A DNA stretch of 64,000 nt from Escherichia coli (GCF_011045215.1 NZ_CP049201.1), one strand, 5' to 3'. Shown: positions 41,300-48,027, counted from the stretch's first letter. A program made the numbers and translations. Notes: generated by a model from the sequence alone, not told the origin.

Positions 41300-42184
41300 A
41301 TGTTATTCAGCCATTCTTCCCTCTCCGCGCAAGTGAAATCACATCTGACGTTTCTTCCTGAAGAAATTCGCCAGAAAATCCTTGAACATCTCCACAGCGT
41401 TATTCATTACGAGCCCGTGATTGGCATTATGGGTAAATCCGGCACAGGCAAAAGCAGTCTGTGTAATGCCATTTTTCAGTCCCGTATCTGCGCCACGCAT
41501 CCCCTGAACGGCTGCACCCGCCAGGCTCATCGCCTCTCCCTGCAGATTGGTGAACGCAGAATGACGCTGGTCGATCTGCCCGGCATTGGTGAAACACCGC
41601 AGCATGATCAGGAATACCGGGAGCTTTACCGTCAGTTACTGCCGGAACTGGATCTGATTATCTGGATCCTGCGGGCTGATGAACGTGCGTATGCTGCCGA
41701 TATTGCCATGCATCAGTTTTTACTGAATGAAGGCGCAGATCCCTCGCGTTTTCTGTTTGTTCTCAGCCATGCCGATCGCGTATTTCCTGCTGAAGAATGG
41801 AACGACACAGAAAAATGCCCGTCCCGTCAGCAGGAACTCTCACTGGCAACAGTAACAGCCCGGGTGGTAACCCTGTTCCCTTCATCATTTCCGGTACTCT
41901 CCGTTGCCGCACCTGTCGGCTGGAACCTTCCGGCATTTGTGTCGCTGATGATCCACGCACTGCCACCACAGGCAACCAGCGCGGTGTATTCACATATCCG
42001 GGGGGAAAACCGCTCTGAACAGGCCCGGAAACACGCACAACAGACTTTTGGTGAAACCATCGGGAAAAGTTTTGACGACGCCGTTGCCCGTTTCAGTTTT
42101 CCGGCCTGGATGTTACAGCTTCTGCGCAAAACCCGGGACCGCATTATCCGCCTGCTGGTCACACTGTGGGATCACCTGTTCTGA
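41300..42184 (+). CDS. YfjP/YkfA/YeeP-family GTPase
   Basis: 294 aa; G1 motif GIMGKSGTGKSSL, DLPG switch motif. Confidence 0.75.
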   Translation: MLFSHSSLSAQVKSHLTFLPEEIRQKILEHLHSVIHYEPVIGIMGKSGTGKSSLCNAIFQSRICATHPLNGCTRQAHRLSLQIGERRMTLVDLPGIGETPQHDQEYRELYRQLLPELDLIIWILRADERAYAADIAMHQFLLNEGADPSRFLFVLSHADRVFPAEEWNDTEKCPSRQQELSLATVTARVVTLFPSSFPVLSVAAPVGWNLPAFVSLMIHALPPQATSAVYSHIRGENRSEQARKHAQQTFGETIGKSFDDAVARFSFPAWMLQLLRKTRDRIIRLLVTLWDHLF

Positions 42185-42302
42185 GCGCCCCGGAGTCCCC
42201 CGTGGCAACCGTATACCTTTACACGACAACGGATTACGGTAACCACTGCCGTATACCGTCTGTCATTATCAATAACACGCTCTTTAATTTCAGAGGTCAG
42301 TC

Positions 42303-42980
42303 ATGAATACCAGAATTCTTTTTCCCCTGCTGTTCACTGTGGCATCCTTCTCCGCCTCCGCCGGTAACTGGGCTGTCAAAAACGGCTGGTGTCAGACCAT
42401 GACGGAAGATGGTCAGGCGCTGGTAATGCTGAAAAATGGCACGATTGGTATTATCGGCCTGATGCAGGGATGTCCGAATGGCGTACAGACGCTCCTGGGC
42501 AGCCGTATCAGTATTAACGGTAACCTGATCCCCACATCACAAATGTGTAATCAGCAGACGGGATTCAGGGCTGTTGAGGTGGAAATCGGACAGGCGCCGG
42601 AAATGGTCAAAAAAGCCGTTCACTCCATAGCAGAGCGTGATGTGTCCGTTTTACAGGCATTTGGTGTACGAATGGAATTCACCCGCGGTGATATGCTGAA
42701 GGTCTGTCCGAAATTTGTCACATCACTTGCCGGTTTTTCCCCGAAACAGACGACCACTATTAATAAAGACTCCGTACTGCAGGCTGCCCGACAGGCATAC
42801 GCCCGGAAATACGACGAGGAAACAACAGAAACCGCTGATTTTGGCTCTTACGAAGTAAAAGGCAATAAGGTTGAGTTTGAAGTGTTCAATCCTGAAGACC
42901 GTGCGTACGACAAAGTGACCGTCACGGTTGGTGCTGACGGTAATGCCACCGGCGCCAGCGTTGAATTTATCGGAAAATAG
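42303..42980 (+). CDS. hypothetical secreted protein (225 aa)
   Basis: Signal peptide [20 protein letters not shown]. Confidence 0.5.
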
Positions 42981-42985
42981 CCGGT

Positions 42986-43219
42986 ATGTCGGACTGCCAC
43001 CCTGTTTTATTGCCCGAAGGCCCTTTCTCACGCGAACAGGCGGTTGCCGTCACAACAGCTTACCGCAATGTGCTTATTGAAGATGACCAGGGAACGCATT
43101 TCCGGCTGGTTATCCGCAATGCCGAAGGGCAGCTACGCTGGCGGTGCTGGAATTTTGAACCTGATGCCGGAAAACAGCTAAATTCGTATCTCGCCAGTGA
43201 GGGAATTCTCAGGCAATAA
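42986..43219 (+). CDS. DUF905 (YkfF-like) protein
   Basis: 77 aa, position and size typical of the CP4-type module. Confidence 0.5.
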
Positions 43220-43317
43220 ACGTCTTCATTTCATCCATCAGGCCGCGTCTTCTCCGGGAGACGTGGCTTTTTCATTTATTACACCAGTAAATCTTAACCA
43301 CCGATAAGGAGCAAATT

Positions 43318-46028: not shown

Positions 46029-46406
46029 ATGAACACATTACCCGACACACACGTACGGGGGGCATCGCGCCGCCCGTCTCCCGTAACCATCTGGCAGACA
46101 CTGCTCACCCGACTGCTGGACCAGCACTACGGCCTCACGCTGAATGACACACCGTTCGCTGATGAACGTGTGATTGAGCAGCATATTGAGGCAGGCATTT
46201 CACTGTGTGACGCGGTGAACTTTCTCGTTGAAAAATACGCGCTGGTACGAACCGACCAGTCGGGATTCAGCGCCTGTACCCACTCTCAGTTAATAAACAG
46301 CATCGATATTCTCCGGGCCCGCCGGGCAACCGGCCTGATGACCCGCAGCCACTACAGAACGGTAAATGACATTACCCTGGGTAAACGTACGGAGGCAAAA
46401 CGATGA
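46029..46406 (+). CDS. CbtA/YeeV/YpjF-family type IV toxin
   Basis: 125 aa; PSPVTIWQTLLTRLLDQHYGLTLNDTPFADERVIEQHIEAGISLCDAVNFLVEKYALVRTDQ matches YeeV as recalled. Confidence 0.8.
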   Translation: MNTLPDTHVRGASRRPSPVTIWQTLLTRLLDQHYGLTLNDTPFADERVIEQHIEAGISLCDAVNFLVEKYALVRTDQSGFSACTHSQLINSIDILRARRATGLMTRSHYRTVNDITLGKRTEAKR

Positions 46407-46891
46407 AACTTTCCCTGATGCCCGAAGCCGACAGCCTTAACGTACAGGCACTGAACATGGGACGTATTGTCGTTGACGTCGATGGTATTGAGCTCGCTGA
46501 ACTGATTAACATGGTCTGCGATAACGGCTACTCCCTTCGTGTTGTTGATGAATCTGACCGGACCTCAGCAGACTGCACGCCACCATTTGCTGCCCTTACC
46601 GGCATACGCTGCAGTACCGCACATATCACGGAAAAGGACAACGCCTGGCTGTACTCGCTGTCACATCAGACGAATGACACCGGCGAATCAGAATGGATTC
46701 ATTTCACAGGTAGCGGATATCTGTTACGTACCGATGCGTGGTCATACCCGGTTCTGCGGCTTAAGCGCCTGGGCCTGTCAAAAACGTTCCGTCGTCTGGT
46801 TGTCACACTTACCCGACGTTATGGCGTCAGTCTCATTCATCTAGATGCCAGCGCTGAATGCCTGCCGGGTTTACCCACTTTCAACTGGTAA
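46403..46891 (+). CDS. YeeW-like protein
   Basis: Start overlaps the toxin stop (ATGA at 46403-46406). Confidence 0.45.
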   Translation: MKLSLMPEADSLNVQALNMGRIVVDVDGIELAELINMVCDNGYSLRVVDESDRTSADCTPPFAALTGIRCSTAHITEKDNAWLYSLSHQTNDTGESEWIHFTGSGYLLRTDAWSYPVLRLKRLGLSKTFRRLVVTLTRRYGVSLIHLDASAECLPGLPTFNW

Positions 46892-46902
46892 CCAGGAGCA
46901 AC

Positions 46903-47100
46903 ATGAAATCATTAACCACGGAAACAGCGCTGGATATTCTGATTGCATGGCTGCAGGACAATATCGACTGCGAATCGGGAATTATCTTTGACAACGATGA
47001 AGATAAAACGGATTCGGCAGCACTGTTGCCCTGTATTGAACAGGCCGGGGAGGATATCCGTACCCTGCGCCAACTGCAGCTTCTGCACCAGAACCGGTGA
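46903..47100 (+). CDS. DUF957-like small protein
   Basis: AGGAG upstream of ATG at 46903. Confidence 0.4.
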   Translation: MKSLTTETALDILIAWLQDNIDCESGIIFDNDEDKTDSAALLPCIEQAGEDIRTLRQLQLLHQNR

Positions 47101-47184
47101 ATCTCACTCACCAGACTTTATTCCACTGACGTCAGCCTGAACAGGGCTGGCGTTTTCGTTTATAAACCAAAAGGGAAACCGATA

Positions 47185-48027
47185 ATGTCAGACATCACAA
47201 TCTCCCGTCCGGAAGTGGTCACCGGGCATACGGACGTTATTTGCTCAACCAGCATTCGCCACATTCTGGCTGTACGAAAGAGTACACTGTTGCAAATCGA
47301 CACACTTATCCGGCGACTGGCTGAAATATCAGCAATGACAGAAAGTATTGGCGGTAAAACTGCTCTGGACTGGGCCATGAAACAGGATTTTCGCTGCGGT
47401 TGCTGGCTGATGGAGAAACCTGAAACGGCAATGAAAGCCATTACCCGGAATCTTGACCGCGAAATCTGGCGTGACCTGATGCAACGCTCCGGGATGCTGT
47501 CCTTAATGGATGCACAGGCCCGTGATACATGGTACCGGTCACTGGAATATGATAATTTTCCGGAAATCAGTGAAGCGAATATCCTGAGCACATTTGAACA
47601 ACTGCACCAGAATAAGGATGAGGTGTTTGAGCGAGGGGTGATCAACGTCTTCAGGGGACTGAGCTGGGATTACAAAACCAACTCACCCTGCAAATTTGGC
47701 AGTAAAATTATCGTCAACAATCTGGTGAGATGGGACCGGTGGGGGTTTCATCTTATCACCGGGCAACAGGCAGATCGACTTGCCGACCTGGAAAGAATGC
47801 TGTATCTGTTCAGCGGCAAACCGATCCCCGACAACCGGGAAAACATCGCCATTCATCTGGATGATCACATCCGGTCTGTTCAGGGTAAAGAGTGCTATGA
47901 AGATGAGATGTTCAGCATCAGATACTTTAAGAAAGGCTCCGCGCACATCACGTTCAGGAAACCAGAACTGGTTGACAGGCTTAATGATATTATTGCGAAA
48001 CACTATCCGGAAGTGTTACCTTCATAA
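47185..48027 (+). CDS. DUF4942-like protein, last gene of the island
   Basis: 280 aa; typical terminal gene of CP4-type modules. Confidence 0.5.
   Translation: MSDITISRPEVVTGHTDVICSTSIRHILAVRKSTLLQIDTLIRRLAEISAMTESIGGKTALDWAMKQDFRCGCWLMEKPETAMKAITRNLDREIWRDLMQRSGMLSLMDAQARDTWYRSLEYDNFPEISEANILSTFEQLHQNKDEVFERGVINVFRGLSWDYKTNSPCKFGSKIIVNNLVRWDRWGFHLITGQQADRLADLERMLYLFSGKPIPDNRENIAIHLDDHIRSVQGKECYEDEMFSIRYFKKGSAHITFRKPELVDRLNDIIAKHYPEVLPS

Follow-up and report, generated by a model that had tools for sequence, protein, structure and literature searches.

A probable conserved yee/yfj module with a CbeA/CbtA toxin-antitoxin pair at the right end of an Escherichia coli selC island

A gene block named the 'yee module' (PMC11537424) is already known from cryptic prophages in Escherichia coli K-12 and from published islands at selC, pheV and pheU, among them the similarly organised selC island GIselC17584/1 (PMC6174562). 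Its K-12 forms are found in CP4-44 (yeeP-flu-yeeR-yeeS-yeeT-cbeA-cbtA-yeeW), in CP4-57 (yfjP...yfjX-yfjY-ypjJ-yfjZ-ypjF) and in CP4-6 (ykfA...yafX-ykfG-ykfH-yafW-ykfI); in the latter two, as in the locus described here, the module adjoins the attachment site (PMC5371832). Here we analyse positions 41300-48027 of a 64-kb stretch of E. coli DNA (the whole stretch is called the window below). We consider it very likely, at a probability of roughly 0.85, that this interval is an intact conserved 'yee/yfj' module closing an island of the tRNA-inserted CP4-44/CP4-57/CP4-6 kind, and in that respect an ordinary one.

Gene order, island boundary and relatives of the module

The interval contains 12 consecutive open reading frames (ORFs) on the + strand, separated by short gaps or overlapping by 4 nt. 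Gene families were assigned with Pfam and NCBIfam, and PADLOC and PHROGs were also scanned. Pfam placed 10 of the 12 ORFs in named families with E-values between 5e-15 and 6e-70, and because of these values the assignments are not attributable to chance. All 12 match their orthologues in length and are in this sense intact. An earlier note made from the sequence alone had listed ten families for this interval, and all ten were recovered in the proposed order and positions, on the + strand; the 225-aa secreted protein and the 65-aa ORF were missing from its list. No further copy of any module gene was found within the window, and repeats inside the module were limited to short, chance-like matches.

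The position of the module at an island end, as the same note had it, is borne out by the junction with the core chromosome. The last 24 nt of selC (tRNA-Sec), TTCGACTCCTGTGATCTTCCGCCA, are repeated exactly 135 bp beyond the last module gene, and this repeat constitutes attR. K-12 selC-setC sequence resumes at the repeat with 97.8% identity, setC, yicL and nlpA come next, and strains without the island align from ~48163. A 24-bp selC repeat has been reported for such islands, of which the DUF4942 gene, the last of the module here, is the common 3'-terminal gene (PMC6174562). Just inside attR lies a TTTGGGGGTTCTTATGGGGGT motif, whose partner copy near selC would fall outside the window; both this motif and the TTCGACTCCTGTGATC repeat agree exactly with sequences described close to the GIselC17584/1 3' end (PMC6174562). 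No tRNA gene was found in the window, which begins within an istA gene of IS21 type (- strand); hence the island extends more than 48 kb leftward, and its selC/integrase end is beyond the window. The module is the attR-proximal 6.9 kb of this selC island.

Comparison with the K-12 elements showed extensive but incomplete agreement with the CP4-44/CP4-57 order that had been proposed: the series GTPase...ArdB-RadC-DUF987-antitoxin-toxin is collinear, whereas the position of DUF932 and the presence of DUF4942 do not conform. Alignment with K-12 yeeP-yeeW and yfjP-ypjF, the check suggested in the earlier note, gave 90.6% DNA identity to yeeS-yeeW over 44758-46551, and yeeS-yeeT-cbeA-cbtA-yeeW of CP4-44 is collinear with its counterpart here. 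Both loci also have a GTPase gene at the upstream end and a 4-nt overlap between the cbtA stop and the start of the following yeeW-type (DUF5983) gene. CP4-44 differs in carrying flu/yeeR where the module here has the 225-aa protein, DUF905, DUF932 and ArdB. In CP4-44, moreover, yeeP is a pseudogene, the DUF957 region is reduced to a 170-bp remnant, DUF4942 is absent, and the insertion site is not selC. The YeeW-like gene recognised in the earlier note is the full-length DUF5983 form, whereas K-12 YeeW is truncated to 64 aa (63% identity over 52 aa).

With CP4-57 and CP4-6, the GTPase, DUF932, DUF905, ArdB, RadC, DUF987, antitoxin and toxin genes are shared. Protein identities to the CP4-57 homologues (blastp) were 73.8% for YfjQ, 66.5% for YfjX, 70.6% for YfjY, 63.8% for YpjJ, 69.4% for YfjZ and 66.3% for YpjF. 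The value for YfjP was just 36.7%, so that of the 'YfjP-like GTPase' the family assignment stood and the particular likeness to YfjP was weak; the translation shows the P-loop GKSGTGKSS and DLPG, and the E. coli 1303 orthologue carries the annotation 'GTPase'. In CP4-57 and CP4-6, DUF932 comes right after the GTPase and before DUF905 or the variable segment, whereas here it follows DUF905. These two elements further differ in a 20-nt antitoxin-toxin spacer, in having no DUF5983, DUF957 or DUF4942 gene, and in their insertion at ssrA and thrW.

The module is common. When 41300-48100 was used as a megablast query against 5426 complete E. coli genomes, part of the module or more was present in 5031 of them, at a median of 3 places per genome, and one place covered at least 80% of the query in 1823 genomes. 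Module places were chromosomal in 14649 cases and plasmid-borne in 7. The best match, at 97%, was strain 1303 (NZ_CP009166), which has the same selC-setC junction and the same gene series in RefSeq. Similarity to this strain starts only at 41224. In strain 1303 the GTPase and 225-aa genes are separated by a WYL/HTH (YfjR-like) regulator gene, which lies in a segment of ~920 bp without counterpart here (42184-42244); variants with and without this segment both occur among other strains. In addition, the cbeA 3' end and the cbeA-cbtA spacer of 1303 differ from those here, which are K-12-like, and its CbtA has C15 where the present one has R15.

Selection was estimated as Nei-Gojobori dN/dS, with strain 1303 and K-12 as references. 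Synonymous divergence was measurable in nine module genes, whose dN/dS of 0.02-0.31 (GTPase, 0.14) speaks for purifying selection and against decay. The 65-aa ORF gave 0.02 at a dS of 0.30 and is therefore taken as truly coding. Against 1303, dS was 0 for DUF905, RadC and DUF5983, and 0.13-0.30 for the GTPase, CbeA, CbtA, DUF957 and DUF4942 genes; this mosaic suggests that paralogous module copies may have recombined with each other.

Toxin-antitoxin, anti-restriction and RadC-like genes

CbtA binds FtsZ and MreB and thereby blocks division and elongation (PMC5624674; PMC5371832); R15 is needed for the MreB interaction and F65 for that with FtsZ (Heller et al., PMC5624674). K-12 CbeA bundles FtsZ/MreB filaments without binding the toxin (Masuda 2012, as cited in PMC5624674). 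The proteins encoded here have the similarity to YeeV/YeeU that their naming in the earlier note implied, CbtA being 85.5% and CbeA 92.6% identical to the K-12 counterparts (dN/dS against K-12, 0.31 and 0.22, respectively), and in the CbtA alignment both R15 and F65 are kept. The antitoxin gene lies directly upstream of the toxin gene on the same strand, with an 89-nt spacer that aligns with the K-12 spacer (88 nt; PMC5371832) and is thus of K-12 type. Folding of this spacer was not convincingly better than that of shuffled sequences (z -1.84). From the characterised homologues, we infer that cbeA-cbtA is a type IV toxin-antitoxin pair, the mode of action of CbeA following from its 92.6% identity; the island apparently carries a cytoskeleton-targeting pair that looks functional.

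The gene called KlcA in the earlier note does belong to the Antirestrict family, but its product is of the ArdB type and not KlcA proper: it matched PDB entry 2WJ9 at E 1e-95, compared with E 5e-20 for KlcA (2KMG). The PDB record of 2WJ9 names its molecule only 'intergenic-region protein'; we take it to be the ArdB of Serfiotis-Mitsa et al. (PMC2836571). K-12 YfjX, to which the protein is 66.5% identical, is also named LfgA. Its start is likely the ATG at 44228, which is preceded by AAGGA and gives the same length, 486 nt, as the ArdB orthologue in 1303. Both ArdB and KlcA relieve type I restriction in vivo (PMC2836571).

The RadC-like protein keeps the JAMM motif HNHPSG...S..D, with AHNHPSGEVTPSKAD visible in the translation, and scored 149.6 bits against TIGR00608 (cutoff 133.85). 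It is 98.6% identical to K-12 YeeS and 70.6% to YfjY/LfgB; its start codon is ambiguous among 44714, 44729 and 44759. The sole experimental report on a K-12 paralogue, YfjY/LfgB, presents it as a protease whose substrate is the antitoxin MqsA (PMC10846083). Of the association of KlcA/RadC genes with anti-restriction and DNA entry that had been suggested, the first part agrees with the ArdB family match, whereas the link of RadC to DNA entry comes from gene context. In K-12, yfjXY-ypjJ-yfjZF forms one operon (PMC10846083), and by analogy ArdB, RadC, DUF987, CbeA and CbtA are probably co-transcribed here.

The most economical reading, drawn from these characterised homologues, is that of a module for retention and entry. 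CbtA would hit FtsZ in an F65-dependent and MreB in an R15-dependent manner, and CbeA would counter it by filament bundling, so that loss or silencing of the island would be penalised through the pair and the island retained. The ArdB-type protein would block type I restriction and so protect the element on entering a new host, and the RadC-like protein would be an enzyme of the JAMM metalloprotease type, its motif being intact.

Several points weigh against this reading. For toxicity, rescue, anti-restriction and island stabilisation alike, the assignment here is by homology, and seven of the 12 proteins (GTPase, DUF905, DUF932, DUF5983, DUF957, DUF4942 and the 225-aa protein) are without demonstrated function. 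K-12 deletions give stress and biofilm phenotypes with no clear addiction phenotype, and cross-neutralisation occurs between paralogous antitoxins (PMC5371832); as genomes carry the module at a median of 3 places, such cross-neutralisation could weaken any addiction. The CP4/P4 integrase type is a presumption, the integrase and selC end being outside the window. Transcription units are likewise putative: terminators and promoters were called by consensus scan, and the 5 promoter-like sites found, compared with 8.9 expected from shuffled sequence, are below the shuffled level, so no promoter is claimed. Two terminator-like hairpins with T-rich tails suggest, as consensus matches, three transcription units spanning 41300-43219, 43318-47100 and 47185-48027, and the hairpin 3' of DUF905 is a possible end of the first.

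Module features, cargo proteins and the rest of the island

Features of the module and of the island boundary are collected in Table 1. An Rfam search of the whole window at the gathering threshold gave no match, and at E≤1 the region 40900-48900 gave one snoRNA match only, which was judged spurious.

Table 1. Features of the module and of the right island boundary (window coordinates)
Feature	Coordinates	Strand	Evidence
Small GTPase, YeeP/YfjP/NgrB-type, 294 aa	41300-42184	+	MMR_HSR1 E 5e-15, Dynamin_N E 2e-10
225-aa secreted protein, no Pfam family	42303-42980	+	signal peptide
DUF905 protein, YkfF-like, 77 aa	42986-43219	+	Pfam DUF905 E 1e-31
Terminator-like hairpin, 13 pairs then T-rich tail	43240-43269	+	consensus scan, 3' of DUF905
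DUF932 protein, YfjQ/YafZ-like, 272 aa	43318-44136	+	Pfam DUF932 E 6e-50
ArdB/KlcA-family anti-restriction protein, 161 aa	44228-44713 (longest ORF from TTG 44204)	+	Pfam Antirestrict (PF03230) E 6e-37
RadC-like JAB/JAMM protein (YeeS)	44714-45205	+	Pfam RadC (PF04002) E 1.5e-44
DUF987 protein (YeeT), 73 aa	45274-45495	+	Pfam DUF987 E 2e-39; 97.3% identical to K-12 YeeT
CbeA (YeeU) antitoxin, 122 aa, GTG start	45571-45939	+	CbeA_antitoxin (PF06154) E 2.2e-54
CbtA (YeeV) toxin, 125 aa	46029-46406	+	CbtA_toxin (PF06755) E 1.6e-60, 112/112 profile positions
DUF5983 protein, full-length YeeW form, 162 aa	46403-46891	+	DUF5983_N E 7.5e-30, DUF5983 E 5.9e-22
65-aa ORF, DUF957-type by orthologue annotation	46903-47100 (longest ORF from 46858)	+	E. 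coli 1303 annotation; unmatched in the searched copies of Pfam and NCBIfam
Terminator-like hairpin, 11 pairs then T-rich tail	47128-47154	+	consensus scan, 5' of DUF4942 gene
DUF4942 protein	47185-48027	+	Pfam DUF4942 E 6e-70
TTTGGGGGTTCTTATGGGGGT motif	48087-48107	+	56 bp inside attR; exact match to repeat near GIselC17584/1 3' end (PMC6174562)
attR, right island boundary	48163-48186	+	24-nt direct repeat of selC 3' end

The gene for the 225-aa protein occupies the variable cargo slot of the module, which in the K-12 elements holds flu/yeeR or yfjR-yfjT. None of Pfam, NCBIfam, PHROGs and PADLOC gave a family for its product. Homologues, 55-98% identical, are known from Escherichia, Klebsiella, Citrobacter, Enterobacter and Lelliottia; they are all unnamed and without a Pfam domain, are widespread in islands of Enterobacteriaceae, and share four invariant Cys residues. 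An AlphaFold2 (AF2) model (pLDDT 79.6) gave nothing significant in a Foldseek search of the PDB; the protein is predicted to consist of an IalB-like beta domain and a cystatin/PepSY-like domain.

Searches of the PDB for sequence relatives of the DUF932 and DUF4942 proteins found none, and the AF2 model of the latter (pLDDT 54.7) was unusable. We considered whether the DUF4942 protein is an enzyme, as in its legacy label 'restriction methylase', and rejected this: its match is confined to positions 80-286 of a phage profile with 548 positions, PHROG 6263 'DNA methyltransferase', and thus to an accessory part, and no SAM-binding or DPPY-type catalytic motif was seen on inspection of the sequence.

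Just upstream of the module are two low-GC ORFs of 284 aa (39379-40233, +) and 335 aa (40230-41237, -) with no significant family. Farther left, the island has backbone genes common to related islands, encoding a ProQ/FinO protein (27933-28409), YfjI/DUF3987 (32517-34142), an alpha/beta hydrolase (34559-35557), a hexapeptide transferase (35710-36162) and a YagK/YfjJ 'inovirus Gp2'/Rep-G2P-like protein (36672-37412). A contact-dependent inhibition-type (CDI) locus occupies 13568-25096 (-) and comprises cdiB (ShlB/POTRA; 23357-25096), the HlyC-type acyltransferase gene cdiC (22820-23347) and the gene for a 3078-aa CdiA with TPS, haemagglutinin repeats and PT-VENN (13568-22804, -). A 200-aa ORF downstream of cdiA (12712-13314), without a Pfam family, could be a candidate immunity gene. 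An Ail/Lom outer-membrane protein is encoded at 11223-11798. Defence-like genes lie at 4349-11126 (-), with an SF1 helicase (AAA_11/AAA_12) plus DUF2726 at 4349-7030 and a NERD-UvrD helicase at 9300-11126; between the two helicases is the gene for an ImpA_N/VasL type VI secretion-related protein (7657-8874). A Tn5-type (IS4 family) transposase gene is found at 1497-2912.

On the other side of the island boundary, past setC-yicL-nlpA, the segment 52000-64000 includes a low-GC block (36-41% GC from ~52 to 61 kb) that is 94.6-98.8% identical to the listed relatives. These annotate in it eilA (HilA family), IpaD/SipD-type and YopB/SipB-type type III secretion proteins, and the inverse autotransporter air/eaeX.

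Alternative readings and what the module means

We asked what else the module could be. That it is inert debris, what is left of a cryptic element in decay, passively carried and without a present function, might be suggested by the partly decayed K-12 copies (yeeP and ypjI pseudogenes, yeeW truncated, DUF4942 lost) and by the ~920 bp, including the WYL/HTH regulator gene, missing here relative to 1303. However, all 12 ORFs are full length, the low dN/dS ratios hold at dS values up to 0.30, the GTPase, the JAMM protein and CbtA have intact catalytic or binding motifs, and the module is kept in more than 90% of complete genomes; we consider this reading highly improbable. A role mainly in phage defence, with CbtA/CbeA and possibly the GTPase protecting the host population by abortive infection, is quite improbable as well. 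Toxin-antitoxin systems on mobile elements reportedly often inhibit phage, as the title of one paper has it; the C-terminus of the GTPase gave a weak PADLOC match to LeoBC (E 1.7e-7), and helicase and NERD-type genes are present on the same island. Yet the LeoBC match spans only ~100 residues, PADLOC matched no other module protein, and no report of phage defence by CbtA/CbeA was found in the literature consulted for this analysis.

A further reading adds to that of retention and entry and does not exclude it. The module would be an establishment cassette, being to the island what the leading region is to a conjugative plasmid; it would enter a recipient early and be expressed against restriction and other defences, the toxin-antitoxin pair belonging to the same package. 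The island would then move, or would once have moved, through conjugative mobilisation and not in the manner of a prophage. Leading regions are rich in anti-restriction and anti-defence genes, some together with toxin-antitoxin genes (PMC11541004), and that of the IncF plasmid pHK01 (NC_019057) has homologues of the DUF932 (62%), DUF905 (56%) and anti-restriction (29%) proteins. There, the homologues are co-directional and stand among ssb, psiB, psiA and hok, a toxin-type stability gene, the DUF932 homologue lying between hok and an SLT gene that is followed by traM. At least 5000 plasmids, of which 4460 are conjugative, carry DUF932 homologues (~62%). Consistent with such a role, all 12 module genes are directed toward the island end, and the island also encodes ProQ/FinO, YagK/YfjJ (Rep/G2P-like) and DUF3987 proteins. 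On the other hand, there was no relaxase among the scanned window proteins and no oriT was identified; the search of the window was for F-type nic sites, other oriT types not being searched, and gave one match with 3 mismatches, outside the module and at chance level. The island module is accompanied by none of the ssb, psiB, psiA, ParB-like and methyltransferase genes of the pHK01 region, nor by the traM adjacent to it; in their place it has RadC, DUF987, CbeA/CbtA, DUF5983 and DUF4942. Nearly all E. coli copies of the module are, moreover, chromosomal. On balance, we regard an establishment role as rather doubtful, and the more specific claim that this end-module is a cassette partly homologous to the IncF leading region, sharing DUF905, DUF932 and the ArdB/KlcA-type gene with it, as unlikely.

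As it stands, the finding is of small importance, adding one more copy of a module common to most E. coli. For annotation it has the value of marking the right boundary of the selC island. The recurrence of part of the gene set in plasmid leading regions is not specific to this window. If the establishment reading were true, these common tRNA islands would spread, now or once, by conjugative mobilisation, with their attR-proximal end expressed early, and the DUF932, DUF905, DUF987, DUF5983 and DUF4942 proteins, the GTPase and the 225-aa protein could include anti-defence or establishment functions.

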